Of a DNA stretch of 64,000 nt, positions 7,907-32,325 are shown piece after piece. The translations under genes and the position numbers were made by a program. Within the stretch, counting starts at the first letter, position 1, and each line of letters opens with the position of its first letter. The notes beneath the pieces are model-generated. The model was given only the letters and a program-made list of their open reading frames with translations. It did no database searches and was not told the origin of the DNA. The DNA is from Candidatus Aminicenantes bacterium (GTDB lineage: Bacteria; Acidobacteriota; Aminicenantia; UBA2199): assembly GCA_016934745.1 (NCBI GenBank), contig JAFGSF010000002.1, positions 15,972 through 79,971 on the forward strand, given 5' to 3'.

Positions 7907-10576
7907 TTATTCGCTGCGCAGCGAATCGATCGGATTGTCGCGGGCAGCACGGAAGCTCTGCAGCAGTACTGCGCCCATAGCAATCAGGAAGGCTGAAAGG
8001 AAAGCGAAGGCAAAGACGGGAAGTCCGGGCCGTATGCGGTAGGCGAAATCCTGAAGCCATCTCTCGCTTGCCAACCAGGCCAGTGGCACAGCGCCGACGC
8101 CGGCAATTAACACCAGCGATACAAATTGTCGGGTCATTAGCATGGCGACGGAAGCAGTTGAAGCGCCGACAACCCGGCGGATGGCGATCTCTTTTCGGCG
8201 CTGGCGGGCATAGAACGCGACCATGCCGTAAAGCCCGAGAAAGGCGATGGCGATGCCCATGGCCGAAATCATCCCCAGCAACTTTCCCATTTGTTCTTCG
8301 TATTGATAGACCTTGCCGAACATCTCATCCAGGAACGCATATTCGAAAGGCACACCGGGAAAATGGGCGCGCCATGTCTTTTCCGCGGCGGCAAGGGCCT
8401 GGGCGATGCGCTCCGTGTCCAGTGTCAGGCTGATGGTGCGCAGCAGGGAATGTTCAATATCCAGGATCATGGGTTCGGCGCCGTCCTTCAGGCCCAGGAA
8501 ATGAAAATCCGCGGTCACGCCGACCACGCTCTTGGTCTTGCGATGGTAGTGGGCCGTCCAGACCGTGCCCAGGACGCTCTGCGGCGTAAAACCCAGTTCC
8601 CGGGCACCGGCTTCGTTGACGATATAAGCGGCCGCTTCGTCATTCCCCGTCGCTTTCCGGAAAGGCCTCCCCGCTGTCATGACAATACCATAGGCACGGA
8701 TGAAATCATGGTCCACGGTCAGTACTTTCAGCCGTTTCGCGTTCCCGGTGCTGAATGAGTTTCCCTTTTGCAGGTAATAGCCTCCGGAAGAGGCTTCGCC
8801 CGGAACCAGTGATGATACGGTGGCGTCGTTGATGCCCGGATCCTTTAGAAAATCATTCTTTATGGCTTCGTAATTATGGCGGAAATAGGACTGATTGCTT
8901 TTGACCTCTAGGATCAGTTTTTGCTGCCGGGAAAAACCAAGCGCCTTGCCTTTCATGAAGGTCAGCTGGCGGAATACCACCAGTGTGCACACCACCAGGA
9001 ATATGCAGATGACAAATTGACACACAACCAGCAGGCACTGCAGGCCATTGCCCTGTTTGCCCGGTATCATCTGATCTTTTATTATGGAAACCGGCTTGAA
9101 ACGGGAAAGGATCAAAGCCGGATAAATGCCGGCGCTGAAGCTTACGATCAGGAACAATGCCAGCAGGGAAGCCAAGACCAGGGGCTGCCCCACGGCCTGG
9201 AAAGAGATGGCTGTTCCGGCCATGCGATTGAAATAGCCCAGCAATGCGGAGAGAAAAGCGAATGCCGCAATGAAAGCGAAGAAGGTAATAACCAGAGATT
9301 CTCCGATGTATTGAAATGTCAGGTCCGAGCGGCTGCCGCCAAGGGTTTTGCGGATGCCCACTTCGCGGCTGCGGGCTGTGGACAGGGTCGCCGACAGGTT
9401 GATAAAGTTAATGCAGCCGATAAATAGGATCAGCAAAGCCGCGAAAGAATAGATGTAAATATAGTACATATTACCGGGCGGCTCGATCTCGCCGGGATAA
9501 TGAGATGCCATATGCAATGTCGACAGTGGTTGAAGAAAAAATTCGTGCCGTTTCATCGGGAACCCCGCCCGTTTGGCAAAGGCGGCGCACAATTGCTCTG
9601 AAAAGGTCTGCAATTGCCGCTTAAAAGCCAAGGGATCAACATGGCGACCAAGCTTTACATAAGTATATTTATAATGAAATTCGGCCCAATTTTGGTTCAG
9701 GTTAGGGACATAGGCCAGCAGGGTGGACATGGAGAGCAGCAGATCATATTTGAGATGGGTGTTGGCCGGGGCGTCTCGGATGATTCCGGTGACTTCGAAG
9801 TCCTCGACAACGGCCGGGCCGATGTCATAATCGATTTCGATGCTCAGACTGCGGCCCAACGGCGGCAGGGAGCCAAAATATTTCCTTGCCATGCTTTCAC
9901 AAATGACGACGGTCCGCGGCTGCGAGAGGGCCGTTCTGGCGCTCCCTTCGAGGAAAGGAATGCGCAGGATCCTGAAAATTTCGGGGTCGGCGAACCAGAC
10001 CCGCTTTTCGAAAAAACGGGACTCACCGCGGGCCACCAGGACATGTTTGGCGTTTTCGAAGGGCGGAATCATCCGGGCCACGCTCTCGGCCTGGCTGAGC
10101 TGCTCTCTGATGCCAATTGCCAGGGGGCCTGGCGTCGAGACCCCGGTAGATTCGCCGATCGGAGTAGTTTGGCTGTAGGCAACGCGGTAAATGCGCTCAT
10201 AATCCGGATGATAGGTATCATAGGTTAGTTCATTGGTTACGTAGAGGATGACCACCATGCTGCTGGCGACTCCCGCCGCCAGTCCGAAGACCTTGATCAG
10301 GAAATAAAACTTGTTTTTCACCATGCTGCGCATGGTGACGGTCAGGGCATTTTTCAACATCAACAGTTTCCAATAGATCCGGTGGCGGAGAAAACCGGGC
10401 AGCGATTTCAGCGCCTGCCACAGGATCCAGCGCTTGGCATAGCCGGCACCTTTTTCGTCCGCGGTCCGGGCGTACAATTCCTCAAAGCAGCCGTCCACGT
10501 CATCGATCTCATCGATGGTCAACAGACTCCGTAAAAATTTGAAAGGGGGCCTTTTTTCGTTGTCTTTTTTTTTCAT
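7907..10576 (-). CDS. Duplicated MacB/FtsX-type ABC permease (ADOP-like)
   Basis: Two MacB-PCD/FtsX repeats (NFINL...REVGIRKTLG; R.KEIAIRRVVGAS); ends NPIDSLRSE; start overlaps PadR stop. Confidence 0.9.
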   Translation of the reverse strand: MKKKDNEKRPPFKFLRSLLTIDEIDDVDGCFEELYARTADEKGAGYAKRWILWQALKSLPGFLRHRIYWKLLMLKNALTVTMRSMVKNKFYFLIKVFGLAAGVASSMVVILYVTNELTYDTYHPDYERIYRVAYSQTTPIGESTGVSTPGPLAIGIREQLSQAESVARMIPPFENAKHVLVARGESRFFEKRVWFADPEIFRILRIPFLEGSARTALSQPRTVVICESMARKYFGSLPPLGRSLSIEIDYDIGPAVVEDFEVTGIIRDAPANTHLKYDLLLSMSTLLAYVPNLNQNWAEFHYKYTYVKLGRHVDPLAFKRQLQTFSEQLCAAFAKRAGFPMKRHEFFLQPLSTLHMASHYPGEIEPPGNMYYIYIYSFAALLILFIGCINFINLSATLSTARSREVGIRKTLGGSRSDLTFQYIGESLVITFFAFIAAFAFLSALLGYFNRMAGTAISFQAVGQPLVLASLLALFLIVSFSAGIYPALILSRFKPVSIIKDQMIPGKQGNGLQCLLVVCQFVICIFLVVCTLVVFRQLTFMKGKALGFSRQQKLILEVKSNQSYFRHNYEAIKNDFLKDPGINDATVSSLVPGEASSGGYYLQKGNSFSTGNAKRLKVLTVDHDFIRAYGIVMTAGRPFRKATGNDEAAAYIVNEAGARELGFTPQSVLGTVWTAHYHRKTKSVVGVTADFHFLGLKDGAEPMILDIEHSLLRTISLTLDTERIAQALAAAEKTWRAHFPGVPFEYAFLDEMFGKVYQYEEQMGKLLGMISAMGIAIAFLGLYGMVAFYARQRRKEIAIRRVVGASTASVAMLMTRQFVSLVLIAGVGAVPLAWLASERWLQDFAYRIRPGLPVFAFAFLSAFLIAMGAVLLQSFRAARDNPIDSLRSE

Positions 10577-14162: not shown

Positions 14163-14755
14163 CGATGTGACCGGGTGCTGGTCGCCGCAACCACGGAAAC
14201 TTTCGCCGCATTGCCTTGAAAAAGCAGAGCGGCCGTGGCCGCTTTCAGGGTTTCACCGGAACGGAACAGATCATCGAAAAGCAGGACATGCATTGATTCG
14301 AAACGCTGGTCAATTACATCAAACACTCCTTCAAGTTCCAAGCGGCGAGAGCGCTTGCCGGCTATACTTTTAAGCGGAACGGTCGCTTTGGCCTTGAACA
14401 GGAAATCATCGGGAGCAGGCAGTCCGAGCAGAGAGCCGATGCGGTCAGCAAGCGCCTGAAGCGGTTGGAACGAGCGCCGTGTATCCGACGGCGGTACGGC
14501 CAGAACGGCCTTGATATCCGCGAGTTCGGACCTGCTGCGAATGAATTCAGCAACCGTATGGGCGATGGGTTCGACCTGCGTGCGGTCGTTGCGGTATTTC
14601 AATTTAAACACTGCCTCGCCCAGTTCGGTTCGCTCCGTATTGAATTCGGGATGCACCGCGCCACCGCTGCCATCGGTCGAGCTGTGGAGTGTATGCTGGT
14701 CCAAAGCCCAGCCGTCCGCCCAGTTGCCGATGATCATTTTCGGGTCTATATTCAT
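14159..14755 (-). CDS. ComF-like type I phosphoribosyltransferase without zinc ribbon (ShosT-like)
   Basis: LKY, VPPS and the PRPP loop VLLFDDLFRSGETL; 4-nt overlap with the DprA-like gene. Confidence 0.85.
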   Translation of the reverse strand: MNIDPKMIIGNWADGWALDQHTLHSSTDGSGGAVHPEFNTERTELGEAVFKLKYRNDRTQVEPIAHTVAEFIRSRSELADIKAVLAVPPSDTRRSFQPLQALADRIGSLLGLPAPDDFLFKAKATVPLKSIAGKRSRRLELEGVFDVIDQRFESMHVLLFDDLFRSGETLKAATAALLFQGNAAKVSVVAATSTRSHR

Positions 14756-15798: not shown

Positions 15799-15901
15799 AA
15801 AAAAGCAGGTTTTTATTTGTTAAATTTTACTGCTTTTTCATTGACCTTGTTAAATTTTTATGATATTAATTTTTAAGTGAATTCTTAGAGAGGAGGAATA
15901 T

Positions 15902-17047
15902 ATGAGTATTTCCGAACAAAAATCACAAAACAAGAAGTATAAAATCGCCTGGCTTCCGGGCGACGGCATCGGCCGGGAAGTGATGGAAGCGGCCCGGATC
16001 GTCCTGGACAAGCTTCATTTCAATGCCGAATACATTCACGGTGATATCGGCTGGGAGTTCTGGTGCCGGGAGGGCGAGTCCTTCCCGCTGCGTACCATCG
16101 ACCTGCTCAAGAATGTCGATGCGGCCATGTTCGGCGCTATCACCTCCAAGCCGGTTAAGGCGGCTGAGGCCGAGCTGGTCCCCCAGTTGAAGGGTCAGGG
16201 CCTGGTCTACCGTTCGCCGATCGTGCGCATGCGTCAACAGTTCGATCTCTGGACCTGCCTGCGTCCTTGCAAGGCGTATCCGGGCAATCCCATCAATTAC
16301 AAGGAGGGAATCGACCTGGTCATCTTCCGCGAAAACACCGAAGACCTCTATTCGGGCGTGGAATTCAACCCCGTTCCCCAAGAGGTCAAGGACGTGCTTC
16401 AGAAGAATGCCAAGGGCTTTGCCGCCTTTAAGGACGTGCCCCTGGACCAATATGCCATCACCTGCAAGATCAACACCCGCAAGGGTTCGGAGCGTATCAT
16501 TCGCGCCGCTTTCGAATACGCCAAGAAACACGGCTACCCCAAGGTTACGGTGATCCACAAGGCCAACGTCGTGCGCGCCACCGAAGGGCTTTTTCTCGAG
16601 ATCGGCAAGGAAGTGGCCAAAGACTACCCGGATATTCTGATGGACAATGCCAACATCGACGCCATCTGCATGTGGCTGCTGAAGAATCCCAAGAACTACT
16701 CGGTGCTGGTGGCTACCAACATGTTCGGCGATATCGTTTCCGACCTCTGTGCCCAGATGGTCGGCGGCCTGGGCTTCGGCTGCTCGGGAAACATCGGCGA
16801 CAAGCTGGCTGTTTTTGAGCCTACCCACGGCTCGGCGCCCAAGTACGCCGGGCAGTACAAGACCAACCCCATCGCCACCATCCTGGCGGCCAAGATGATG
16901 CTGGACTGGCTGGGCGAGAAAGAGATGGCCGCCCGGGTCGAAAAGGCCGTGGCCGAGGTGATCGCCGAGGGCAAAGTACGCACCTATGACATGGGCGGAA
17001 GCAACAAGACTCTGGAAATGGCCGAGGCCATCGCGAAAAAGTTGTAA
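15902..17047 (+). CDS. Isocitrate/homoisocitrate/isopropylmalate dehydrogenase family enzyme
   Basis: PGDGIG.EV, RENTEDLY, HKANV, NMFGDIVSD, EPTHGSAPKYAG. Confidence 0.92.
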   Translation: MSISEQKSQNKKYKIAWLPGDGIGREVMEAARIVLDKLHFNAEYIHGDIGWEFWCREGESFPLRTIDLLKNVDAAMFGAITSKPVKAAEAELVPQLKGQGLVYRSPIVRMRQQFDLWTCLRPCKAYPGNPINYKEGIDLVIFRENTEDLYSGVEFNPVPQEVKDVLQKNAKGFAAFKDVPLDQYAITCKINTRKGSERIIRAAFEYAKKHGYPKVTVIHKANVVRATEGLFLEIGKEVAKDYPDILMDNANIDAICMWLLKNPKNYSVLVATNMFGDIVSDLCAQMVGGLGFGCSGNIGDKLAVFEPTHGSAPKYAGQYKTNPIATILAAKMMLDWLGEKEMAARVEKAVAEVIAEGKVRTYDMGGSNKTLEMAEAIAKKL

Positions 17048-17096
17048 GGCAAATTGTTGCCTCTGGCGGCGTGACTGAAACCATGGAGAATAAGTT

Positions 17097-18017
17097 ATGA
17101 CCGATATAAAAATTCATGAAGTGGGTTTGCGCGACGGTTTGCAGATTGAGAAACAGGCCGTGCCGCTGGAGAAAAAAATCGCCTGGGTAGAGAGTCTTCT
17201 TGTCTCGGGCATGGAGATGATCCAACTGGGATCATTCGTCAACCCGGAAAAGGTCCCGCAAATGGCTGATACCGACACGCTGTTCAACCATTTCAGCCAG
17301 CCGGGCAAGAAACAGTCTGCTGCCATCCTGTCGGGGCTCGTATTGAATGAAAGAGGACTGGAACGTGGCATGGCCTGCGGCGTGGACATGTTCTGCATGG
17401 GAGTTTCCGCCAGCGACACCCACAGCCGCAAGAACACCGGCAAGGGCACCGATGAAGCTTTGGGTGGGATTCTTACCATGGCCCAATCGGCTATTAAAGC
17501 AGGTAAACGCATACAAGCATCCATCCAGTCGGCATTCGGCTGTGGTTTCGAGGGGCCAATCCCCCAGGAACGAGTCATGTCGATTGTCGACAAGTACCTG
17601 TCAGCCGGCATCCGCAACATCAGCCTGGCTGACACGGCGGGTCATGCCTTCCCGCCCCAAGTTGAATCTTTATATACGAATATATTGAAACGCGACAGCA
17701 AGGTTGAGTTGGCCTGCCATTTCCACAACACCTATGGTCTGGGGTTGGCCAACTGTTATGCGGCGTTCAAATCGGGTGTCCTGTATTTTGAAACAGCCCT
17801 GGGGGGACTGGGCGGCTGCCCCTTCACCAAGGTGGCGGCCGGAAATGTTTGCAGCGAAGATCTTGTCCATTCCTTTCAACGTCAGGGGCTGGCCATGGCG
17901 ATCGATTTGGAAAAACTCATTGAAATTTCCCGTGATTTAAGCCGCTTCTTTAACCGTGAGTTGCCTGGTTTCATCCTCAAGGCGGGCTCCATCGTCAAAT
18001 TTAATCCAGTGCAATAA
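17097..18017 (+). CDS. HMG-CoA lyase-family (DRE-TIM) acyl-CoA lyase
   Basis: EVGLRDGLQ, LADT.G, HFHNTYG, GGLGGCPF, GNV.SED. Confidence 0.9.
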   Translation: MTDIKIHEVGLRDGLQIEKQAVPLEKKIAWVESLLVSGMEMIQLGSFVNPEKVPQMADTDTLFNHFSQPGKKQSAAILSGLVLNERGLERGMACGVDMFCMGVSASDTHSRKNTGKGTDEALGGILTMAQSAIKAGKRIQASIQSAFGCGFEGPIPQERVMSIVDKYLSAGIRNISLADTAGHAFPPQVESLYTNILKRDSKVELACHFHNTYGLGLANCYAAFKSGVLYFETALGGLGGCPFTKVAAGNVCSEDLVHSFQRQGLAMAIDLEKLIEISRDLSRFFNRELPGFILKAGSIVKFNPVQ

Positions 18018-18029
18018 AGGAGAGAGACC

Positions 18030-19223
18030 ATGAAACTATTGGAGAAGGTCAGGGTGCTCGACCTGACCAATGTCCTTTCCGGTCCTTTTGCCACGATGCA
18101 CCTCGCCCTTCTGGGTGCCGAGGTGATCAAGATCGAAAATCCGAATGGCGGTGACCTGGCCCGGAAGTTGGGAAGCGTCAATCCACTCAACAAGCAGTTG
18201 ATGGGAACCAGTTTTTTGGCCCAGAATGCCAACAAGAAGTCTTTGACCCTTAATCTCAAGCTTGAGCAAGGCAAGGACATCTTTCGCAAATTGCTTGAAA
18301 CGGCCGATGTAGTGGTGGAAAATTTTCGCCCGGGAGTCATGGACAAGCTCGGTTTTTCATACGAAAAAATTTGCAAGATCAATGCCAAGATCATCTATTG
18401 CGCCATTTCCGGATTCGGCCAGACCGGGCCGGATGCTTTCAAGCCGGCCTATGACCAAATCATCCAGGGCCTTTCCGGCGTCATGGCCGTCAACGGTGAT
18501 GAACGGCTCAACCCGTTGCGCGCCGGCTTCCCGGTCTGCGACACGGTCGGCGGCCTGAACGCGGCGTTTGCCATCATGGCTGCCCTTTATTATCGTGAAC
18601 ACAGCGGCGATGGACAGTTTATCGACATCGCCATGCTCGACTCGATCATGCCCTTGATGGGCTGGGTGGCTGCCAACCTGCTTATTGGCAAGCAACAGCC
18701 CGTGCTGCTTGGCAACGATAATTTCACTGCAGCCCCTTCTGGCACATTTGTGACCCAGGATGGATACATCAATATCGCCGCCAACCAGCAGAAACAGTGG
18801 GAAGACCTGACGGATGCGCTTGGATTGCCTGAACTGAAAAGCGATCCTCGTTTTCAGGAACGTGATACGCGCAAAGCGAATCGCAAACTTCTAACTCCGC
18901 TGCTGGAAGCCAAGCTGAAGGAAAACAGCACGATTTATTGGGTCGAGCTGCTCAATGGCAAAGGCATACCTTCCGGCGATATCGTTAGCCTGGAGACGGC
19001 CCTGAACTCAGGCCAGGCTAATCATCGCGGCGTAATCGAAGAAATCAAGGAAGAAGGCATTGGCGCCATCAAGATTTTCAATCTGACCGCAAAGTTTTCC
19101 AAAACCCCGGCAAAAATAACAACTGCTCCCCCCAGATTGTCGGCACATACTGCGGAAATTTTAAAAAACCTGGATTATAATGAAGCAGACATTGCAGCTT
19201 TTAAAGAAAAGGGCGTGATTTAA
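18030..19223 (+). CDS. Class III (CaiB/BaiF) CoA-transferase
   Basis: VLDLT..LSGP, LGAEVIKIE, N.NKKSL, ENFRPG, SGFGQTGP; catalytic Asp in PVCDTVGG. Confidence 0.92.
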   Translation: MKLLEKVRVLDLTNVLSGPFATMHLALLGAEVIKIENPNGGDLARKLGSVNPLNKQLMGTSFLAQNANKKSLTLNLKLEQGKDIFRKLLETADVVVENFRPGVMDKLGFSYEKICKINAKIIYCAISGFGQTGPDAFKPAYDQIIQGLSGVMAVNGDERLNPLRAGFPVCDTVGGLNAAFAIMAALYYREHSGDGQFIDIAMLDSIMPLMGWVAANLLIGKQQPVLLGNDNFTAAPSGTFVTQDGYINIAANQQKQWEDLTDALGLPELKSDPRFQERDTRKANRKLLTPLLEAKLKENSTIYWVELLNGKGIPSGDIVSLETALNSGQANHRGVIEEIKEEGIGAIKIFNLTAKFSKTPAKITTAPPRLSAHTAEILKNLDYNEADIAAFKEKGVI

Positions 19224-19249
19224 GATTAAATATATAAGGAGGAATCACA

Positions 19250-20542
19250 ATGGGAATGACAATGGTTGAAAAGATACTGGCCAAGGCCACCAATCAGGTT
19301 TCTGTAAAGGCGGGAGATGTGCTGGAACCCCGCGTGGACCTGGCCATGTCGCATGAGAACGGAGCCCTGGTCATCAATCAGTTCAAGGACATTTTCCAGG
19401 GCACGGGTTTGGAAGCCAAGGTTTGGGATCCTGCCAAAATAGCCATTATTTTCGATCACCGTGTGCCGGCTGAAAGTTCGAAAACAGCCGGTAACCAGAA
19501 GAAAATCAGGGATTTTGTCGCCCAGCAGGGAATCACCAAGTTCCACGATATTCGCGGCGACAGTGGCGGCATCTGCCACCAGATCCTGCCCGAATTCGGG
19601 TATGTACGGCCGGGGAAGGTTGTAGTCGGAACAGACAGTCATACCACCAGTCATGGTGCCCTGGGCGCTTTTTCATTTGGGATCGGGGCCACAGAAATGG
19701 CTGCAGTCTGGGCTCTGGGGCGGGTGCTGAACGTTGAGGTTCCCGGCACGATCAGGGTGGTCTGTGACGGCAAATTCAAAAGCCATGTCGCGCCCAAAGA
19801 TTTGATATTGCACCTGGTCGGAAAATTGACGGCCGAAGGCGCCAATTTCAAGGTGATTGAATTTCATGGTCCGGCTATCGAACAGATGCCGACTTCGGGC
19901 CGCCTAGTAATCTGCAACATGACGGTCGAGGCCGGTGCCACGGCCGGGATCGTACCGCCTGACGGAGAAACCATTCGCTATCTGCAGAAAGAGGCCGGAG
20001 TCAAGGATAAACCGGATATTTTCGGTCCTGATTCGGATGCCGTCTATGACCAGATGATCCATATCGATGTTTCCCAGCTGGTACCACAAATCGCCTGTCC
20101 GCATACTGTCGACAACGTCAAGCCGATTCATGAAGTTTTGGGCACGAAAATCAACCAAATCGTCATCGGCTCCTGCACCAACGGCCGTCTCGATGACCTG
20201 GCCATTGCGGCCAGGATACTTAAAGGCAAGAAAGTGGCCCGGCAAACGCGAATGTTGATTTTTCCAGCATCAACGCGAATTTATCTGCAGGCACTAAAAA
20301 AAGGCTATGTGGCCGATTTCATGGAAGCGGGGGCCGTGGTCATGAATTCGGGTTGCGGTCCCTGCTTGGGGATTCACCAGGGTGCACTGGCCGACGGTGA
20401 CGTGGCCCTAGCGACTACCAATCGCAACTTCAAGGGCCGCATGGGCAATCCCAATGCCGAAGTCTATCTTTGTTCGCCCGCTGTAGCCGCGGCCAGCGCC
20501 ATAACCGGTGTGATCACCGATCCAAGCAAAGGAGGAGAATAA
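19250..20542 (+). CDS. Aconitase-family dehydratase large subunit (LeuC/HacA type)
   Basis: FDH, GICHQ, DSHT; [4Fe-4S] cysteines in GSCTNGR and GCGPCLG; NRNF.GRMG. Confidence 0.92.
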   Translation: MGMTMVEKILAKATNQVSVKAGDVLEPRVDLAMSHENGALVINQFKDIFQGTGLEAKVWDPAKIAIIFDHRVPAESSKTAGNQKKIRDFVAQQGITKFHDIRGDSGGICHQILPEFGYVRPGKVVVGTDSHTTSHGALGAFSFGIGATEMAAVWALGRVLNVEVPGTIRVVCDGKFKSHVAPKDLILHLVGKLTAEGANFKVIEFHGPAIEQMPTSGRLVICNMTVEAGATAGIVPPDGETIRYLQKEAGVKDKPDIFGPDSDAVYDQMIHIDVSQLVPQIACPHTVDNVKPIHEVLGTKINQIVIGSCTNGRLDDLAIAARILKGKKVARQTRMLIFPASTRIYLQALKKGYVADFMEAGAVVMNSGCGPCLGIHQGALADGDVALATTNRNFKGRMGNPNAEVYLCSPAVAAASAITGVITDPSKGGE

Positions 20543-20543
20543 G

Positions 20544-21044
20544 ATGGCAAAAGTTGTCTTTAAAGTGGGAGACGATGTCTCCACCGATATCATTTATCCG
20601 GGAAGATTCATGGCCACGGTCCTACCGACCGAAACTCCGCAATATGCCTTTATGGACTATCACGAATTCAACGCCAAAATAAAGAAAAAAGAATTCCCGC
20701 CCCAGAGCATTATCGTGGCCGGTAAAAATTTCGGCTGCGGTTCTTCGCGTGAACAGGCCGCTTCCTGCCTGAAAGGTCCGGATTTTGTCGTCGTGGCGCC
20801 AAACTTTTCGCGTATTTTCCTGCAGAATGCGATTAATCTCGGACTGAAGATGGTAATTTGTCCAACGATTGAAGCCAACGAGGGAGATGAGCTGGAATTT
20901 TCAGCCGACCAGGTCATTAATAAAAGCTCCGGAAAAAGCTTTCCGATTGTGGCTCTGCCCAAAGCGCGGCAAGTCATCATCGATGCCGGTGGATTGATCC
21001 CCTTCACGCGTAAACTACTGCTTGAGAGCAAAGGGAAAAACTGA
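20544..21044 (+). CDS. Aconitase-family dehydratase small subunit (LeuD/HacB type)
   Basis: STDIIYP, NFGCGSSREQA, F.RIF..NAIN.G, GGL. Confidence 0.92.
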   Translation: MAKVVFKVGDDVSTDIIYPGRFMATVLPTETPQYAFMDYHEFNAKIKKKEFPPQSIIVAGKNFGCGSSREQAASCLKGPDFVVVAPNFSRIFLQNAINLGLKMVICPTIEANEGDELEFSADQVINKSSGKSFPIVALPKARQVIIDAGGLIPFTRKLLLESKGKN

Positions 21045-21110
21045 TATTTTCCATTCGCCTGATCCGCACTGCCCAGATGTGAAAAGCAATTGGAAATCAA
21101 AGGCACAACC

Positions 21111-21998
21111 ATGGCGGTCAATGTCAAGGAAGCGCTGGCCCTGCTAAACCGGGCATTACCATTGGTGCTTCTACGCGCCGGTATCATTGCCAGCGCCGGC
21201 TTCGTAATGATCGTTGTTTTTGGCATACTGCTTTTTGCTTTTCGCCCGGCCGGCGGTGTCAGCCGGTGCGTAGCCACGACCATTGTCATTTTGGTAGTTT
21301 TGGGCCTCTCGACCGGTGGCCGGATGGTACGACACTTTTTCCTTTTTCGCATCCGGGCTGCCATGCTGTTTCTTTTTTCCGGATGCGTTGTTCCGGCTCC
21401 CACGCTGACCGCGGCAATACGCGAAGCCGGACGTTATTTCCAGAATCACTCCCAATGGCAATCTTTAAATTATTGGCTGCGCCGGGTTGTGTTGGCACCG
21501 TTTTGTTTCAACGCTCAAGCTCGGGAGATATCGTCCTTGCCCCATTTTTGGAAAGGTGGCAAATTGGCTAAATTATTGAACTCGGGGGTGCTGGGCCAGG
21601 CCGTGCTGGTCCTGGCTTTCTCACGGAGGGGCAGCGATATTCGGCAATGCGCCTGCGAAGGGGCTGCTCTATATCTTGCCTTCGGTATGGAGAGCCGGCG
21701 CCTGGCCAAGCGCTGGCTGGGATTGTCGGTGTTTGGTTTTCTGATCCTGGTCCTTTTCCTGGGCATGCCCACCTGGTTTTTTTTCAGCAACACCGGTGCC
21801 CCGGTCTGGATCGGCATCGTTCTGGCTGCCGTCATCGCCTGGGTTCTGCACCAGGCCTTTATCCTTCCCTTTACCCTGGCCGGAGTCGGGGCCGCACTGC
21901 TGGCCGAAACAAAAGACAAAACACCAGACCGGGATATTTGCGATAAATTGAACTCGTTGATCCCGGCAAAAGCAATGACGGTCAAACAACAGCATTAA
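21111..21998 (+). CDS. Hypothetical membrane protein
   Basis: Long ORF with several hydrophobic segments; no family recognised. Confidence 0.6.
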   Translation: MAVNVKEALALLNRALPLVLLRAGIIASAGFVMIVVFGILLFAFRPAGGVSRCVATTIVILVVLGLSTGGRMVRHFFLFRIRAAMLFLFSGCVVPAPTLTAAIREAGRYFQNHSQWQSLNYWLRRVVLAPFCFNAQAREISSLPHFWKGGKLAKLLNSGVLGQAVLVLAFSRRGSDIRQCACEGAALYLAFGMESRRLAKRWLGLSVFGFLILVLFLGMPTWFFFSNTGAPVWIGIVLAAVIAWVLHQAFILPFTLAGVGAALLAETKDKTPDRDICDKLNSLIPAKAMTVKQQH

Positions 21999-25868: not shown

Positions 25869-27368
25869 ATGGAAAATTTAAACGCTTTTGTAGTAATGCT
25901 ATATTTTTTGGTTTTGTCGATCCTGGCGATTTTTGGCATGCATCGCTATTATCTGGTTTATTTGTTTTTAAAAAATAAAAAAGCAGTTCCGGAACCAAAA
26001 GGCAGATTTGCCGAGTTACCGAAAGTGACCATCCAATTGCCCATGTACAATGAAATGTATGTGGCTGAGAGATTGATTGATGCCGTGGTAAAAATGGAAT
26101 ATCCCCGCGAATTGCTGGAAATACAGGTTTTGGATGATTCAACCGACGAAACCGTGAAGATTGCTTCGCGGCGCGTCAGTTTTTATCAAAAACAGGGTCT
26201 GGATATCAGTTATCTTCACCGTGAAAATCGCGAAGGCTACAAAGCTGGAGCATTGGAACAAGGAATGAAGGTTGCCAAAGGCGAGTTCATTGCTGTTTTC
26301 GATGCCGATTTTATCCCCCACAAGCATTTTTTAACCAATACTATCCATTTTTTTACCGACCCGCAAATAGGTATGGTGCAAATGCGCTGGAGCCATTTAA
26401 ACCGCAATTTTTCTCTAATAACCAAGCTGCAGTCCATTTTTCTGGATGGCCATTTTGTGATCGAGCATACGGCCCGCAATCGATCCGGGCGTTTTTTCAA
26501 TTTCAACGGTACTGCCGGAATATGGCGGAAAATCGCCATCCATGACGGCGGTGGCTGGGAACATGACACGTTGACCGAGGATCTGGATCTGAGTTACCGG
26601 ACGCAGATGAAAGGATGGCAATTTATCTACCTACCTGAATATTCTGTGCCCGCCGAACTGCCGGTGGATATCGTGGCTTTCAAAGCCCAGCAGCATCGTT
26701 GGGCCAAGGGGTCTATCCAAACAGCCAAGAAGCTTTTGCCCAAAATATTCAAGGCGCGATTGCCCTTGCCCGTTAAAATGGAGTCATTTTTCCATTTGGC
26801 GGCCAATATAGCCTACCTGTTGATGGTGCCGCTGTCGGTCTCCATTTTGCCGGTAGTGATTTTTAGAAGGGATTTGAATTGGAACCAGATGGTAATCTAC
26901 GATGTGCCATTGTTTTTAATGGCCACGGCGTCGGTATCGGCGTTTTATATCGTTTCCCAGAAAGAATTGTATTCCGATTGGACCGCGACCTTCAAGTATC
27001 TGCCATTACTGATGGGGCTGGGTATCGGGCTTTCGGTAAACAATTCATTTGCCGTTCTAGAAGCCTTGCGCAACAAGGAATCTGAATTCGTGCGCACGCC
27101 AAAGTTTGGCATTGAAAAGAAACAGGACAGCTGGGGAACCAAGAAATACAAGGGTAACAAAAAGCTTTTGATTCCGCTGGTGGAATTTGTGCTGGGTCTA
27201 TATTTTACCATTGCCGTGATCATCTGCATCAGTGAAGGCATCTGGCTGACTTTGCCTTTCCTGATGCTCTTCCAGTATGGATATTTGTATATTTCATTCC
27301 TGTCATTTGCAACGATTTTCAAAAACAGGTTTGTTCTTAAAAAGGCCAGTGTCAGTGTTGCCCACTGA
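25869..27368 (+). CDS. Processive GT2 glycosyltransferase (cellulose-synthase-like)
   Basis: QLPMYNE, DDSTD, KAG, FDAD, TED and QxxRW (QQHRW) motifs with TM helices. Confidence 0.92.
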   Translation: MENLNAFVVMLYFLVLSILAIFGMHRYYLVYLFLKNKKAVPEPKGRFAELPKVTIQLPMYNEMYVAERLIDAVVKMEYPRELLEIQVLDDSTDETVKIASRRVSFYQKQGLDISYLHRENREGYKAGALEQGMKVAKGEFIAVFDADFIPHKHFLTNTIHFFTDPQIGMVQMRWSHLNRNFSLITKLQSIFLDGHFVIEHTARNRSGRFFNFNGTAGIWRKIAIHDGGGWEHDTLTEDLDLSYRTQMKGWQFIYLPEYSVPAELPVDIVAFKAQQHRWAKGSIQTAKKLLPKIFKARLPLPVKMESFFHLAANIAYLLMVPLSVSILPVVIFRRDLNWNQMVIYDVPLFLMATASVSAFYIVSQKELYSDWTATFKYLPLLMGLGIGLSVNNSFAVLEALRNKESEFVRTPKFGIEKKQDSWGTKKYKGNKKLLIPLVEFVLGLYFTIAVIICISEGIWLTLPFLMLFQYGYLYISFLSFATIFKNRFVLKKASVSVAH

Positions 27369-27434
27369 TTGCAGCAATTAAGGGAAGCTCGCTTGTGATG
27401 ACGGGAATATTTTCGCCCATTTTTTAAAAAAACC

Positions 27435-28478
27435 ATGAAATTCAATGCCTATTTTGCCAGATTTTTTCACCCGCAACAAAGTTTTTCCGGCAATATTCAG
27501 GTGGGTGGAGATAATGTCCAGGCAAATTTTAAAAAAATAGACGGCGATTTGTTTGTGGTTTATTTTAAAAATCAAATTGAACTCAGTTTTCTTCAAAAAA
27601 TTAATTTTAAAAATTCCAAACTCTCCATGAATGTCCTATTGCCCGTGTTGTCGCAGTACAACCAAAGAAAATTAAACAAGATTGCCGAGATACTGGCCTC
27701 GATCGACAAACAGACTTTCGGCCAGATCATTATGGCTTTACTTACCGTAGAAAAATTTTTGGAAATTGGGAATTTGCTTGGTTTTTTTATTGTTGAAAGA
27801 TGGGTGGCCATTGCCGTCCTTATCGAATTGGAGCTCGCCGCACAGGTGAAGACCATCAGTTTCAATGACTTATTCGTTACTTCCTGGAGCCACTATTCCC
27901 AAAACCTGGCGGCCTTGGAAAATGCTTTGCGGCAGGCTTATGAAAACCGGGAAAAGACATTAAAATTCAGCCAACTGGAAAAAATCATCAAAGTACCTCA
28001 CACGACACTCTATTTTAGGTACTTGCTGCGCAAGTGCAGCCAGATGTTTCCTTTTAAACTGCTTGCCAATGCCCTTATTTTTTCCCAGCTGCCCTTGGCT
28101 GCTGACGAAAAAGAGCGCATGACTGAAATCGAAAAAGTTCTGAAATCGAAAAAATTGTTGATATTTGCCATTGAAGACGTGCTGAAAAGTCTATCGCTCT
28201 CAACCAAGCAAATCAATGATGCCTTGTGGTACATGGTTCACGAAGAGAAATTCATGCAATTAAATGAGAGATATTTTATTTTCAATGAAGAATATGCAAA
28301 AATAGTCAATCGTTTAAAAAAATTCGTAAGGAATCAAGGGGATATCATTACCATTGATGATTTGCGAAATATTACTGCTTATTCACGAAAGTATATCATT
28401 ATTTTATTTGAGTATCTGGATAGTCAAAACATCACTCAGCGAATCGGGAATAAAAGAAAAATATTACTGGGTGCTTGA
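27435..28478 (+). CDS. SelB C-terminal winged-helix protein lacking the GTPase domain
   Basis: C-terminal SRKYIIILFEYLD...T.R.GNKR matches the last SelB winged helix; no P-loop or NKxD. Confidence 0.75.
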   Translation: MKFNAYFARFFHPQQSFSGNIQVGGDNVQANFKKIDGDLFVVYFKNQIELSFLQKINFKNSKLSMNVLLPVLSQYNQRKLNKIAEILASIDKQTFGQIIMALLTVEKFLEIGNLLGFFIVERWVAIAVLIELELAAQVKTISFNDLFVTSWSHYSQNLAALENALRQAYENREKTLKFSQLEKIIKVPHTTLYFRYLLRKCSQMFPFKLLANALIFSQLPLAADEKERMTEIEKVLKSKKLLIFAIEDVLKSLSLSTKQINDALWYMVHEEKFMQLNERYFIFNEEYAKIVNRLKKFVRNQGDIITIDDLRNITAYSRKYIIILFEYLDSQNITQRIGNKRKILLGA

Positions 28479-29483
28479 TCAGGAAGTTTCTATTCCCAAG
28501 CGGATTTTTGCGGCGTTTAGAATATCATTAAACGCCTTTTCCTGTTCGGCTTGTGGCTGACCCTTGGTTTTCTCAAACAAAACAAGATGCTGAAGTAACT
28601 TCAAAGCATCAGGGGAATACTTTTCATCATTAAGCAGGCTGGCTTCGGCCAGGTAATTCATCGCACTGTCAATATCAATTTTGTTGAGTAAAACTCCAAG
28701 GTCGTAAGCTACCTTGGCGTTGTTTTTCATTTGGTAGGAAGCCTTCAAGTTCTCAATGGCCTTTTCCTGATTTTTGAGTCGTGCGTACCACATTCCCAGC
28801 ATTTTGTAATAATCGGCATTGGGTTTATTTTGGTTAATGGCTTCGATACCGCGAATGGCGTCTTCCACCCTTTGGCTCTTGAGCATGCGCTCGCTGAAGA
28901 CCAAGACAAAATTGGCCGATTTGTCGGACTTGTCCAATTGATAGGCTTCGATAGATTTGTTTAAAGCGTTTACGGCGTTTTGCGGATCTTCGGGCTTGGC
29001 AGCCAGTAATTGCACTTGAATCCGCAGGGCCGGGGCAACATAGTTGATGTCGATAGCCGCGGAACTCTGGTTTTCAGTGCGTATTGATTTGCCTAGTTCA
29101 ATCAGCGCATCGGCATAACTGTAGGCTTTAGCAGCGTCTTTTTTTGTCAAATTAAAGGCATTGGCCAAATACAGAAGCAAACGCAATCTGTTTTGGGAAT
29201 CCAAATCCTTGTAAATTAATGCTTTTTCTCCATACTGGATAGTTTTTTCGAATTGTTGAAGTTGATAGGCCGTGTCTGCCAGACTTAAATACATATATAT
29301 GGCGTTTCTTTCATCTTTATCGCCATAGGTGTTGTAATATTCTTCAAGTTTTTCCAATCTGGCTTGGAGGTTTTTTTCATCCTGGATGGCAATCCAGGCA
29401 TCGGTTTGAGCCTTGCTCATGATAGGTAATAACAGCGCTCCGCTGACTATGATTAATAGGGTGAAAATCACAACTTTTTTCAT
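28479..29483 (-). CDS. Exported TPR-like helical repeat protein
   Basis: Signal peptide or anchor; repeated amphipathic helix pairs (Y..LG..Y...AI). Confidence 0.7.
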   Translation of the reverse strand: MKKVVIFTLLIIVSGALLLPIMSKAQTDAWIAIQDEKNLQARLEKLEEYYNTYGDKDERNAIYMYLSLADTAYQLQQFEKTIQYGEKALIYKDLDSQNRLRLLLYLANAFNLTKKDAAKAYSYADALIELGKSIRTENQSSAAIDINYVAPALRIQVQLLAAKPEDPQNAVNALNKSIEAYQLDKSDKSANFVLVFSERMLKSQRVEDAIRGIEAINQNKPNADYYKMLGMWYARLKNQEKAIENLKASYQMKNNAKVAYDLGVLLNKIDIDSAMNYLAEASLLNDEKYSPDALKLLQHLVLFEKTKGQPQAEQEKAFNDILNAAKIRLGIETS

Positions 29484-29612
29484 GGTGCATTCCTCCATTC
29501 TAATTTGGAATTGAGAAATAATTATAAATAATTTTCACTGACAATGTCAAGTATTTTATCAAAAAGCACCGATGTGGCATTTGACTTAATTTTTGTTAGT
29601 CGGTAAAATGTC

Positions 29613-30926
29613 ATGGTGATCAAGAAAGGTATTTATTGTTTTCTTTTTATATCGCTCTTTACCCCCGTTTTTTGTCAAACAATCAACATCACTTCTTTCG
29701 AATTGCCCAATGGCTTGAAAGTCATCCTGTCCCCCAGCGACGACATGCAGGCGGCTGCGGTCTGTATTTACAACATGAATGGGGCCAGGCATGATTTGGC
29801 TGACAATCGCGGCATATCTTATCTATTTCAATATTTAATGTTTAATGGCAACGAGAACCTGGAATCCTACGACCATGTTTTATTTATCAACAAGATGGGC
29901 GGAATCGTCAGCGGCCGGGTAAGCCATGACAATTCGGTTTTCTGTGATGTATTACCAGCGTCAGAAATTAACGTGGCTCTATGGCTGGAAAGCGAGCGCT
30001 TAAAAAGCCTGCGCCTTGACGACGCAAGTATCAATTACCAAAAAAACCAAATATTCAATCGCATCAACAGACTGGGGGAAGCAAGCCTCAATTTTAGAGC
30101 GCAAACTTGGATCAATTCCAGGGTTTTCGATGGTTTGCCTTATGCCCAGCCCCTATATGGCGATTTGAATAAAATTCGGAATCTCAATAATGACCAGATC
30201 AGGGAAAGCTATCAAAAATTTCAAAATTTGTCCAATATTTTGCTGATTATAGCCGGGAAATTTGATATCAATGAATTAAAGGCCGGAATCAATAAATATT
30301 TTCAAAACATTCCACCCGGAAAGAAATCCCAGGAGGTCATTGCGAATATTTCCACGCCTCATAGCTCTTTCTCGGTGAAGAACTGGGTCCTGCCAGGATT
30401 GAAAAATAATTTTTCTTTTTTTGCAATCAAGTCTCCGGGGAAAATTAATTATGATTTTTTGTATTTTGATTTTTTGCGCTATTACTTGACCGATCCGCGC
30501 CTTTCACATCTGGATTATATGATTAACAAGGTGAATAAATTGAATGTTGAAATAGAAGCGACATACACCGATTATTTCGAGGCCAATGTGTTGACCATCC
30601 AAATGTCCTGCCCTGAACGCATTAATCTTGAAAAGGCCAAATATATACTTCAGCAAGAATTCATGGCCTTGACCACGAAATTGATTAATAATGCGGATTT
30701 TAGGGCGGTCCGTTCCTTGATGGAAATCGACTTTAACAAAAACACGTACTCATTGGAGGACAGGTGCCTGCGCATCGGCGAATTTTATCACATGTTTGGT
30801 GAACTTAATTTCTTTGATGCGTATCTGAGACGTTTGCGTAGGGTTTCATTATACGATATTTTGGAAAGCGCCAAAAAATATCTGAAAAAAGAAAATCAGG
30901 TTATTTTAAATGTCTATGGCGAATAA
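29613..30926 (+). CDS. M16 peptidase-family protein, predicted inactive
   Basis: LPNGLKVIL, ALWLESER; HxxEH replaced by YLFQY; start may be GTG 29616. Confidence 0.85.
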   Translation: MVIKKGIYCFLFISLFTPVFCQTINITSFELPNGLKVILSPSDDMQAAAVCIYNMNGARHDLADNRGISYLFQYLMFNGNENLESYDHVLFINKMGGIVSGRVSHDNSVFCDVLPASEINVALWLESERLKSLRLDDASINYQKNQIFNRINRLGEASLNFRAQTWINSRVFDGLPYAQPLYGDLNKIRNLNNDQIRESYQKFQNLSNILLIIAGKFDINELKAGINKYFQNIPPGKKSQEVIANISTPHSSFSVKNWVLPGLKNNFSFFAIKSPGKINYDFLYFDFLRYYLTDPRLSHLDYMINKVNKLNVEIEATYTDYFEANVLTIQMSCPERINLEKAKYILQQEFMALTTKLINNADFRAVRSLMEIDFNKNTYSLEDRCLRIGEFYHMFGELNFFDAYLRRLRRVSLYDILESAKKYLKKENQVILNVYGE

Positions 30927-32325
30927 ATTTTTGTCTGTCGGAAAATCCTCGCAGTGGCTGATCGCAGGACTCTTTATTTTCTATGGTATTGCGCATCTGG
31001 GTGCAGATACGCGGCAGTTTTCATTGTCTACGGCCAAGGGATTTCCCATTCGAGTATTGCAGGACAATGAGATGCATTTTGTTCATGCTGAGCTATTTAT
31101 TTTCCTGGACAGCAGTACGCAAAATTACAATTCCCTGATAATCTCTCAGTTGACCATATTGAATATGTTTGCCCGGGAATTAAATTCGCCATCATCCAAC
31201 CTGCTGGACTCGCTTTTAAGGCTGGGCAATGATTATCAGGTTGAACAAACCCCTGAGTATATAAAATTGAGTATTAATTTTCTTCCCGACCGGCTTGCCA
31301 GTTTTACCAAAGTGCTTCGGGATATTTTCACCTACCAGTCCTTTCATTTAAATAAATTCAACCTAAGCAAGGCCAAATATTGGTCATTTTTTGTGAAAAA
31401 CAGGGATTGGAAAAAAGACATTGCTTTTTTGTTGGCTTACCAGCAGATCGTCGGCAATTTTTATTTCAGCCAGGGCTTGGTAATCCAGGAATTCATCAAT
31501 GGAATCAATTTGGCCCAATTGCGGTCATTTCATCTGAAAACTTTCAGAATTGACAACTCCCTACTCATCATCAAGGGTAATGTAAATCCTTATATCGTTT
31601 TGGGTCTGCTTGAGAAGGATTTGCCCGTTTTGGCCCGAACGCCGGCAAAAAGCAAAAAAGAGGCTATCAAAATCCACTCGGGCCGCAAGATATTTGTGCT
31701 GAACAATAACGTTTCCGATTACCCGATGATTTACTGGTTTGATGTGGCTCCACCATTGACTGATGTCAACTACCTGCCATTTTTTATCGGCAATTTCGCA
31801 TTGTTCGGTTTCCCCGGAGGGAGAATTTATCAGTCCGAAAGGAGTCAGGTTTTACTGGGTGGCTACAAAGTCAGTACGGATATCTATTCATTAAAGAATT
31901 TCACTGTTTTCTGCAACTACTTGCGATTGAACTATGCTGATTTGGAAAACTTCCTGTTACTGGTTGATCAAGAAAGAAAAAAGTTTTCCGTACGCTCTAT
32001 TGTCAGAAAAGAGTATCTGGATGCCTTGAATTATTACCTCGGCCGGGCTCAAGTGGAAACAGGCAATTATGCTTATGGAATGCAGCAAATGCTTGACCGT
32101 TACCAAACCCCACCGGCTTCCCCGCTTCCATCGGCACGAAATTCAGAATCAGCGCGCGAAGTGACGTTTGAACGGGTCGTGCAGGTGATGGATACCCTGA
32201 TGGGTTATAAACACAAAACAGGTATCCGTGAAAGGGGCATCATTGTTCTGATCGGAAATGCCAATTTGATTATTAATAATTTGAAAATATTGAAAACGGA
32301 TGTTGTTGAATTACGAATGGATTGA
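30910..32325 (+). CDS. Divergent M16-like second subunit, exported
   Basis: Overlaps the upstream M16 gene; signal peptide; I...QLRSFH..F...NSLLIIKGN pattern; no HxxEH. Confidence 0.6.
   Translation: MSMANKFLSVGKSSQWLIAGLFIFYGIAHLGADTRQFSLSTAKGFPIRVLQDNEMHFVHAELFIFLDSSTQNYNSLIISQLTILNMFARELNSPSSNLLDSLLRLGNDYQVEQTPEYIKLSINFLPDRLASFTKVLRDIFTYQSFHLNKFNLSKAKYWSFFVKNRDWKKDIAFLLAYQQIVGNFYFSQGLVIQEFINGINLAQLRSFHLKTFRIDNSLLIIKGNVNPYIVLGLLEKDLPVLARTPAKSKKEAIKIHSGRKIFVLNNNVSDYPMIYWFDVAPPLTDVNYLPFFIGNFALFGFPGGRIYQSERSQVLLGGYKVSTDIYSLKNFTVFCNYLRLNYADLENFLLLVDQERKKFSVRSIVRKEYLDALNYYLGRAQVETGNYAYGMQQMLDRYQTPPASPLPSARNSESAREVTFERVVQVMDTLMGYKHKTGIRERGIIVLIGNANLIINNLKILKTDVVELRMD

Follow-up and report, generated by a model that had tools for sequence, protein, structure and literature searches.

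The window analysed here, a stretch of 64,000 nucleotides of Candidatus Aminicenantes bacterium (positions 15,972 to 79,971 of contig JAFGSF010000002.1, assembly GCA_016934745.1), carries five consecutive genes on its forward strand. They encode a beta-decarboxylating dehydrogenase (DH), an acyl-CoA lyase of the 3-hydroxy-3-methylglutaryl-CoA (HMG-CoA) lyase family (LY), a class III CoA-transferase (CT), and the large (LG) and small (SM) subunits of a dehydratase (Table 1). The original prediction, made from the DNA letters alone, described five tightly spaced genes with gaps of 1 to 49 nt, and the open reading frames (ORFs) of the window confirmed it, with gaps of 49, 12, 26 and 1 nt from DH to SM. 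We suggest that this operon is a synthase-free, thioester-conserving module for changing the chain length of 2-oxoacids, and we give a probability of about 0.5 to the reading that it runs in the shortening direction, from 2-oxoadipate to acetyl-CoA and 2-oxoglutarate.

Table 1. The operon and adjoining features; positions count from the first nucleotide of the window.
Feature	Position	Strand	Length	Placement	Matches or remarks
DH, beta-decarboxylating dehydrogenase, IDH/HICDH-like, NADP-type	15902..17047	+	381 aa		Pfam, NCBIfam and PDB matches
LY, HMG-CoA-lyase-family acyl-CoA lyase	17097..18017	+	306 aa		NF004283, HMGL-like
CT, class III CoA-transferase	18030..19223	+	397 aa		CoA_transf_3
LG, large subunit, archaeal-type LeuC/HacA [4Fe-4S] dehydratase	19250..20542	+	430 aa		Aconitase
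SM, small subunit, LeuD/HacB type, with substrate-recognition loop	20544..21044	+	166 aa		Aconitase_C, TIGR02087
Sigma-70-like promoter match, TTTTCA-18-TATGAT	15835..15864	+		38 nt 5' of DH	weak evidence only
Membrane protein, multi-pass	21090..21998	+	302 aa	45 nt 3' of SM	no family

DH matched Iso_dh in Pfam (301 bits, E = 1.5e-89), and its top NCBIfam match was the homoisocitrate dehydrogenase (HICDH) AksF2 with 349 bits, while it stayed under all equivalog cut-offs, including leuB (TIGR00169, 208.6 bits against 353.2) and every isocitrate dehydrogenase (IDH) model; its top match in the PDB was Thermus HICDH (3asj, 245 bits). LY passed both PF00682 (HMGL-like; 125.6 bits against a cut-off of 29, E = 3e-36) and the HMG-CoA lyase subfamily model NF004283 (263.6 bits against 246), and it matched the solved HMG-CoA lyases with 213 to 135 bits, the human enzyme scoring 152.6. 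CT is covered by a full-length CoA_transf_3 domain (PF02515, positions 1 to 366, 391.1 bits, E = 6.7e-117), and its best solved relative is the human succinate-hydroxymethylglutarate CoA-transferase SUGCT (262.6 bits). LG (Aconitase, E = 9.4e-100) passed the models of the archaeal-type isopropylmalate isomerase (IPMI)/HacA subfamily (NF001614, 553 bits; TIGR02086, 517.5 bits against 410) and matched the Methanocaldococcus (M.) jannaschii isopropylmalate/citramalate isomerase and homoaconitase (HACN) with 392.8 and 383.3 bits. SM (Aconitase_C, E = 2.8e-12) scored 110.7 bits with TIGR02087, over its cut-off of 108.95, and 106 and 92 bits with the structures 3vba and 2pkp. LG and SM missed the HacA, HacB, LEU2 and leuD equivalog cut-offs, and all five proteins lay under every LeuB, LeuC and LeuD equivalog cut-off of NCBIfam.

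The catalytic motifs, which had been noted as kept, were seen in alignments to solved structures for the lyase, the transferase, both dehydratase subunits and the dehydrogenase. In LY the RD, HxH and GGCP motifs align with those of 6nds and 1ydo, and R12, D13, H208, H210 and C241 do not vary among 16 sequences; we take the Arg-Asp pair, the HxH metal ligands and the GGCP-loop Cys to have the catalytic roles that they have in human HMG-CoA lyase. The Asp of 'PVCDTVGG' in CT is aligned with an Asp of human SUGCT which is presumably the catalytic one. The cysteines of 'GSCTNGR' (CTNG) and 'CGPCLG' (CxxC) in LG align with the three cluster-binding cysteines of the M. jannaschii enzyme, SM has the GSSRE motif ('GCGSSREQA'), and the Arg/Tyr/Lys/Asp set of DH is invariant across IDH, LeuB and the cluster enzyme.

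The gene order is widely conserved. Among species-representative genomes, one per species, 597 stretches matched the search pattern; 548 of them encoded an LY relative, and the best 80 loci were used further. Adjacency and colinearity were counted with tblastn in the loci that had room for the genes (identities to the window proteins of 62–97%), because ORF calls gave antisense ORFs in some GC-rich loci. LY and CT were adjacent in 75 of 75 such loci, LY-CT-LG-SM were colinear in 58 of 63, and DH lay directly 5' of LY in 46 of 69. In five of the 80 loci LY and CT are fused to one ORF of ~700 aa (L030, L061 and L071 among them; genomes G010, G011, G019 and G022). All of the best 120 LY relatives listed are at least 69% identical, and the closest named records carry the label Candidatus Aminicenantes. 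The record titles of the 80 loci name Aminicenantes, other Acidobacteriota, Chloroflexota/Anaerolineae, Zixibacteria, Ignavibacteria/Bacteroidota, Omnitrophota, Gemmatimonadota, Armatimonadota and others. The order is kept under at least eight phylum labels, and colinearity in 58 of 63 loci is far beyond chance. A second set was made up of 29 loci from metagenomes, each 8 kb or longer. LY was present in 47 of 251 genomes sampled from the phylum, all with a completeness of 85% or more. Carrier genomes were taken from the loci, 30 in number (31 in some counts), and in 13 of the 30 LY has no other HMGL-like match beside it.

A condensing enzyme was missing from this arrangement: no gene of the LeuA/homocitrate synthase type was found in the operon or seen in the flanks of the 80 loci. 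The original prediction, that no LeuA, homocitrate or citrate synthase is present, holds for the cluster and its surroundings; for the genome as a whole it must be limited, since contig C44 of the same assembly (8170-9360, minus strand; L007) carries a LeuA-family synthase of 396 aa that stands by itself, with no isomerase or dehydrogenase gene linked to it; homocitrate synthases make up all four of its best solved relatives. Re-citrate synthases belong to the same lineage, and the C44 enzyme could have either activity. The proposal that a lyase and a CoA-transferase stand in place of a LeuA-type synthase in a thioester-conserving 2-oxoacid module fits every test that was run, and the first check named with it, conservation of the cluster, came out positive across many phyla.

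Relatives in the same class that lack LY and CT were also observed, with an LG-SM-DH trio (L198, G189:C23; L197, G218:C140). The DH of these trios is 52–66% identical to that of the window, one copy reaching 66%, and the loop of L198, 'YFSPIVRLR', is nearly that of the window. LG, SM and DH can thus occur together where LY and CT are missing, and such trios may represent a synthase-dependent ancestor of the module.

Genes next to the cluster gave information on its possible substrate. In the metagenome locus L167, where the genes around the operon are housekeeping genes, an L-piperideine-6-carboxylate (aminoadipate-semialdehyde) dehydrogenase gene lies between CT and LG (NF050084, 766.4 bits; equivalog cut-off 730). 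Directly upstream of the operon in L052, on the same strand, are genes for a DAO-family oxidoreductase and a dehydrogenase of the same kind (768.7 bits), and L050 has DadA-like, ornithine-cyclodeaminase/piperideine-2-carboxylate-reductase-family, DAO and L-piperideine-6-carboxylate dehydrogenase genes downstream of it. In L057/L098 a single strand carries genes for an amino-acid-type ABC transporter, a three-subunit 2-oxoacid:ferredoxin oxidoreductase (OFOR), a glyoxalase-like protein, a DapB-like reductase, a DAO protein and a 731-aa aldehyde:ferredoxin oxidoreductase (AOR), and DH-LY-CT-LG-SM come after the latter. A gene of the saccharopine dehydrogenase family adjoins the cluster in five of the 80 genome loci and in 5/29 metagenome loci; its top solved relative is PH1688, which we take to be an L-lysine dehydrogenase. 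These lysine-type neighbours all lead from lysine to 2-aminoadipate. The acid is the product of an NAD-type aldehyde dehydrogenase, and the direction would therefore be catabolic; the five genes would have to consume the product, starting from 2-oxoadipate. It is from this context, in a minority of the loci, that we infer the substrate. Running the module backwards for 2-oxoadipate was one of several options listed at the outset, and it is the only one of them that gene context supports.

We propose the following scheme, in which the substrates, the CoA donor and the direction are what we infer beside the observed identities, synteny, co-occurrence and neighbourhoods. DH would act as a 2-oxoadipate reductive carboxylase, that is, as a homoisocitrate dehydrogenase which converts 2-oxoadipate, CO2 and NADPH to homoisocitrate. 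LG/SM would convert homoisocitrate through cis-homoaconitate to homocitrate, CT would transfer CoA from succinyl-CoA (or acetyl-CoA) onto homocitrate, and LY, as a homocitryl-CoA lyase, would cleave homocitryl-CoA to acetyl-CoA and 2-oxoglutarate. Judged by what is established for citrate synthase, aconitase and IDH, such a sequence should come near equilibrium when the thioester is kept. The lyase and the CoA-transferase keep the thioester, so this step should be reversible, and high CO2 and reduced NADP could drive the sequence backwards. The operon would then be the final part of an anaerobic breakdown of lysine and 2-aminoadipate that needs no acyl-CoA dehydrogenase, oxygen or ATP and returns the 2-oxoglutarate used in the upstream transaminating steps. 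The relatives of two enzymes are in line with this scheme: judged by sequence matches, DH is closest to homoisocitrate dehydrogenases among characterised enzymes, and SUGCT, the closest solved relative of CT, is an enzyme of C5-C6 dicarboxylates.

Candidates for the upstream steps exist in the genome of the window, an assembly of 2.2 Mb in 66 contigs. Lysine would be converted through saccharopine to aminoadipate semialdehyde by a pair of enzymes, lysine-ketoglutarate reductase (LKR) and saccharopine dehydrogenase (SDH), which resemble aminoadipate-semialdehyde synthase (AASS). The putative pair is encoded by adjacent genes of 466 and 441 aa on contig C19 (50115-51515 and 51591-52916; L088:5115-7916), whose best solved relatives are the LKR domain of human AASS (250 bits), saccharopine reductase (351.8 bits) and the SDH domain of AASS (317.8 bits). 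The pair resembles the two halves of the eukaryotic enzyme, and in two relatives it lies within a single open frame of 892–981 aa, a putative bacterial AASS-like fusion. The semialdehyde would be oxidised to 2-aminoadipate by a long AOR of 724 aa (C2:42755-44929, minus strand; L095:7755-9929), and an aminotransferase would yield 2-oxoadipate. A 2-oxoglutarate:ferredoxin oxidoreductase (KOR)-like OFOR and succinyl-CoA synthetase are present too, and therefore succinyl-CoA is available as CoA donor and 2-oxoglutarate can go on to succinate.

Along its full length, the long AOR shares 60% identity with the AOR encoded next to the module in L057. Its subfamily shows 57–97% identity across phyla and shares an operon with the module in one Chloroflexia genome. 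Orthologues with at least 58% identity occur in 14/31 carriers, including the genome of the window and all 11 carriers without a tricarboxylic acid (TCA) cycle. In the 251-genome sample the long AOR was found in 31 genomes and together with LY in 26; LY is thus present in 26/31 genomes with the long AOR, compared with 21/220 without it. At the level of families, all six with the long AOR fall within the 15 of 80 that have LY. We give no probability for this co-occurrence because related genomes are not independent. In 14 further genomes the long AOR was accompanied by a small ORF in four loci and by one adjacent piperideine-6-carboxylate dehydrogenase, and otherwise no conserved partner was seen. 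A complementary distribution of the long AOR and an aldehyde dehydrogenase that resembled aminoadipate-semialdehyde dehydrogenase was considered across the carriers and withdrawn; the ~390-bit Zixibacteria/Ignavibacteria proteins are generic GucD-like aldehyde dehydrogenases in a TCA gene cluster. PF16653, present in 30/31 carriers, was likewise dropped as evidence for lysine metabolism: it is too unspecific, as the family also includes carboxynorspermidine dehydrogenases, and the SDH type of the window's own genome is unassociated with LY.

The residues that determine substrate choice in DH and SM are ambiguous, as far as alignments can tell. The recognition loop of SM reads R-F-M-A-T-V, and R[FY]MATV is invariant in 61 sequences. 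Aligned with the M. jannaschii loops 'RYLVY' (isopropylmalate/citramalate isomerase) and 'PYLRT' (homoaconitase), it fits neither motif; we take YLRT to mark HACN and YLVY to mark IPMI. The small subunit of Pyrococcus (P.) horikoshii, with the loop 'RYNLT', likewise has no homoaconitase Arg, and one paper states that it can stand in for the small subunit of Thermus homoaconitase (PMC7308503); the missing Arg of SM therefore excludes nothing. The loop of DH, YRSPIVRMR, is invariant in 49 sequences. Compared with NADP-IDH and LeuB from carrier genomes, it has the length of the IDH loop, keeps its Ser, has Ile for its Asn (49/49 sequences) and carries two extra Arg, whereas the LeuB loop is short and hydrophobic (GLL-type), the DH loop being polar and 6 residues longer. 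The IDH-loop Ser and Asn presumably correspond to S113 and N115 in the substrate loop of Escherichia coli IDH, the Asn being the one that binds isocitrate. DH is 39% identical to an NADP-IDH and has the motif 'APKYAG' as in NADP-IDH, compared with 'APDIAG' in LeuB and Thermus HICDH, which suits a reductive role. Taken together, these features suggest that DH is an NADP(H) user with a side-chain pocket that is polar, probably suited to a carboxylated side chain, and not that for isocitrate.

Several observations weigh against the shortening of 2-oxoadipate as the role of the operon. The same two loops are among them: SM has Ala at the position of the Arg in the methanogen homoaconitase motif YLRT, and DH has Val at the position of Thermus HICDH Arg85 (compared with 3asj), which we take to be the contact for the distal carboxylate, with invariant Arg at -2 and -7 of the loop. 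One dehydratase would need to do both half-reactions, and the aminotransferase from 2-aminoadipate to 2-oxoadipate has no assigned gene. Saccharopine-type SDH is unassociated with LY in the 251-genome sample, where it occurs in 37 genomes and 18 families; LY is also present in 10 of these genomes and in 3 of these families, against about 3.4 families expected. A strict piperideine-6-carboxylate dehydrogenase is present in only 4/31 carriers. Three complete Zixibacteria chromosomes have the module without the long AOR or recognisable lysine-to-semialdehyde genes; for their saccharopine-dehydrogenase-like gene no family assignment was reached. Lysine-type neighbours were seen in Chloroflexota-type loci only (8/80 genome and 6/29 metagenome loci), most flanks vary, and those in this window are housekeeping genes. 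Finally, a VorB-type OFOR (535.7 bits against 399) adjoins the cluster in four Ignavibacteria/Bacteroidota loci (L047, L059, L074 and L087), and binding proteins or transporters of the leucine/isoleucine/valine (LIV) type stand beside it in four loci of the genome set (plus L098) and in 6/29 metagenome loci; both would suit branched-chain substrates too.

These last neighbours would fit a module that handles alkylmalates, interconverting 2-oxobutyrate with pyruvate and acetyl-CoA through citramalyl-CoA, or 2-oxoisocaproate with 2-oxoisovalerate and acetyl-CoA through isopropylmalyl-CoA, whether to break down threonine/methionine or leucine or for salvage synthesis. Among solved structures SM and LG come closest to the two subunits of the M. 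jannaschii isopropylmalate/citramalate isomerase, the loops of SM and DH lack the two Arg named above, and a review discusses how citramalate can be reached with a lyase and a transferase (PMC8307300). The absence of the Arg from SM loses weight with the P. horikoshii subunit, and the long, polar, IDH-like loop of DH, with its Ser and two extra Arg, is unlike that of LeuB. Moreover, the piperideine-6-carboxylate dehydrogenase inside or beside the operon would be left unexplained. We regard an alkylmalate role as unlikely, though not negligible. Its biosynthetic form can be discarded: IlvD was found in only 3/30 carriers, and the genome of the window, rated 84.77% complete, gave no match to IlvD (PF00920) or IlvC (PF01450, ketol-acid reductoisomerase), so the module does not serve leucine or isoleucine synthesis de novo with LeuA or CimA replaced, and the citramalate/isopropylmalate option of the original prediction is not supported.

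If LY were a citryl-CoA lyase and CT a citrate CoA-transferase, then, with aconitase- and IDH-like partners, the operon would supply 2-oxoglutarate without citrate synthase, or cleave citrate from the reductive carboxylation of 2-oxoglutarate without ATP. The genome of the window fits this idea, as at 84.77% completeness it yielded no citrate synthase, and its only aconitase-family, Iso_dh-family and CoA_transf_3 genes found are those of the cluster. The same holds for citrate synthase, aconitase and Iso_dh (over the cut-off) in 11/30 carriers, and the loop Ser, the NADP motif and the IDH identity of DH, as well as KOR and succinyl-CoA synthetase, are compatible with it. On the other hand, 19/30 carriers do have citrate synthase, with further aconitase- and Iso_dh-family matches including AcnA-sized aconitases, and several also have genes resembling citryl-CoA lyase (CCL); the expectation that carriers lack citrate synthase was thus borne out in the former group and not in the latter. 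DH has Ile for the isocitrate-binding Asn, the SM loop has no Arg, and the neighbours are of the lysine type rather than the TCA type. A bypass of citrate synthase, as proposed at the outset, is therefore rejected as a general role, though it may apply to the TCA-less group of carriers; the citrate reading as a whole appears improbable. ORFs of ~270 aa that match only the C-terminal half of citrate synthase were noted in G006, G008, G012, G014, G018, G020, G021 and G027; they may be of the citryl-CoA-lyase type, which would be a hint that Ignavibacteria and Zixibacteria cleave citrate or have a reductive TCA cycle.

The module could also work in the opposite direction, from 2-oxoglutarate and acetyl-CoA to 2-oxoadipate, and so feed a saccharopine-type alpha-aminoadipate pathway that makes lysine in bacteria without the diaminopimelate (DAP) route. 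DapA was not found in 5/5 Aminicenantes-type genomes (that of the window and four close relatives) or in the three complete Zixibacteria chromosomes, which also lack IlvD and a LysA match over the cut-off. LysA passed its cut-off in just 4/31 carriers and had no match at E <= 1e-20 in six Aminicenantes-type genomes. The homocitrate-synthase-like gene on C44 and the saccharopine-reductase-like and LKR-like genes on C19 would supply parts of such a pathway, and an AOR could in principle reduce aminoadipate. However, the in-operon NAD-type aldehyde dehydrogenases act towards aminoadipate, the LKR-like gene is far closer to the catabolic AASS (250 bits) than to fungal Lys1 (36.8 bits), the Zixibacteria lack the downstream enzymes, and a synthase running together with CT and LY would make a futile cycle. 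No Thermus-type LysX was over its cut-off in the 5/5 genomes searched. From the findings on LysA, DapA and LysX, the carriers look auxotrophic for lysine as well as branched-chain amino acids, and in the genome of the window the absence of DapA, LysA, IlvC and IlvD points to multiple amino-acid auxotrophy. A purely forward role is quite improbable in our view. We also consider it improbable that the module is bidirectional and may, in Aminicenantes without DAP and TCA routes, additionally serve a complete fungal-style lysine synthesis; there, a homocitrate-synthase-like enzyme would share the isomerase and the dehydrogenase, the AASS-like LKR/SDH would run in reverse, and the long tungsten-type AOR would be a ferredoxin-driven aminoadipate reductase replacing the ATP- and NADPH-dependent Lys2.

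That ordinary LeuB and LeuCD simply lie beside an HMG-CoA lyase and an HMG/glutarate CoA-transferase acting on HMG alone, without a joint pathway, would agree with the HMG-CoA lyase subfamily score of LY and the top solved relative of CT, but it is hardly credible given the fixed order under so many phylum labels, the LY-CT fusions, the lack of LeuA and mostly of IlvD, the scores below the LeuB, LeuC and LeuD cut-offs, and the absence of liu-type genes from the recurrent flank clusters of the 80 loci. This arrangement had been named as the one that would speak against the original prediction, and the cluster does not show it.

The surroundings of the operon in the window include a nitroreductase, comF- and dprA-like genes, a membrane protein, a lytic transglycosylase, glycosyltransferases and purH. 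The membrane protein that follows SM has no Pfam or NCBIfam family, the Atlas gives unnamed clusters only, and no fold lead was obtained. Homologues with 35–71% identity stand after SM in 9/80 loci, all Aminicenantes-type, and it is possible that this protein is a sixth operon member in such loci only. Between positions 14700 and 22400 there were 12 promoter-like sites, compared with 6.1 +/- 2.3 in shuffled sequences, and terminator-like sites showed no excess (12 compared with 10.9). No RNA dataset with the operon was listed; two metatranscriptome runs from the best DNA-matching study share next to no sampled words of the stretch. The region 26000-32000 of the window, which starts beside glycosyltransferase genes, has a low G+C content (0.40–0.44, compared with about 0.50–0.57 elsewhere) and may be an acquired polysaccharide island. 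In two Chloroflexota loci a DNA methylase and an NgoMIV-type restriction enzyme are inserted directly 3' of the operon (L026:6618-8897; L049:13237-15524).

The module is a widespread, unannotated variant of 2-oxoacid elongation. The full-text literature searched, subscription journals being outside its coverage, contained neither 'homocitryl-CoA' nor 'isopropylmalyl-CoA' and no paper that joins Aminicenantes with HMG-CoA lyase, and the listings gave no paper that describes this gene set. The nearest printed precedent found for the logic is the indirect citramalate route, in which citramalyl-CoA lyase is followed by a CoA-transferase, as given in the review (PMC8307300). If the shortening of 2-oxoadipate is correct, it would be an unrecognised, oxygen-independent and ATP-free end to lysine breakdown that keeps the energy of the CoA thioester and gives back acetyl-CoA and the amino-group acceptor 2-oxoglutarate. 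The carriers are peptide-scavenging anaerobes of sediment and soil, and present models of carbon flow omit the module. Current pipeline names, such as HMG-CoA lyase, CaiB/formyl-CoA transferase, LeuC, LeuD and isocitrate or isopropylmalate dehydrogenase, mislead metabolic reconstruction. More generally, the condensing synthase of 2-oxoacid elongation would be replaceable by a lyase and a CoA-transferase, which would make the whole sequence reversible; this principle bears on how the family of TCA, leucine and lysine pathways evolved and on the design of pathways that incorporate CO2 or edit chain length.

One of the known systems close to the module is the front half of the alpha-aminoadipate pathway in Thermus, archaea and fungi (homocitrate synthase, HacAB/LysTU and homoisocitrate dehydrogenase). 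The hydroxy-acid steps would be carried out by the same three enzyme families with the same proposed intermediates, LG and SM being of the HacAB/archaeal LeuCD type. Unlike that pathway, the operon has an HMGL-family lyase and a class III CoA-transferase instead of a synthase, its proposed direction is the opposite, catabolic one, DH is of the NADP type without the Thermus Arg85, and SM is without the Arg of the methanogen YLRT motif.

The (R)-citramalyl-CoA lyase (EC 4.1.3.46) and the succinyl-CoA:(R)-citramalate CoA-transferase (EC 2.8.3.20) of Chloroflexus aurantiacus belong to the HMGL and class III families. They likewise pair a lyase with a transferase on a 2-hydroxy-2-substituted succinyl-type CoA ester. 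The review counts this pair as an indirect way to citramalate (PMC8307300). However, their substrate is citramalate, and no LeuCD/LeuB-type isomerase and dehydrogenase are known to go with them; what LY and CT show is that genes of these two families lie side by side. The citrate/citramalate lyase complexes and the citryl-CoA synthetase (CCS) plus CCL pair of the reductive TCA cycle follow the same logic of thioester activation and subsequent cleavage to an acetyl thioester and a 2-oxoacid. They belong to other protein families, the former using CitF/CitE on an acyl carrier protein and the latter being succinyl-CoA-synthetase-like and citrate-synthase-like. CCS spends ATP, whereas the module would use free CoA esters and no ATP.

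SUGCT, which works in mammalian lysine breakdown, is the closest solved relative of CT, and human HMG-CoA lyase is among those of LY; the mammalian genes differ in being unclustered with aconitase- and IDH-family genes and in their substrates, glutarate and HMG. HglS/YdcJ of Pseudomonas putida and plant lysine catabolism also carries 2-oxoadipate towards 2-oxoglutarate, and is reported to convert 2-oxoadipate to 2-hydroxyglutarate in an O2-dependent step (10.1101/2020.01.30.927905). Because it is an oxygenase it is of no use to anaerobes; a carbon is lost as CO2 in the reaction and acetyl-CoA is not formed, whereas the module proposed here would reach 2-oxoglutarate without oxygen and release acetyl-CoA.

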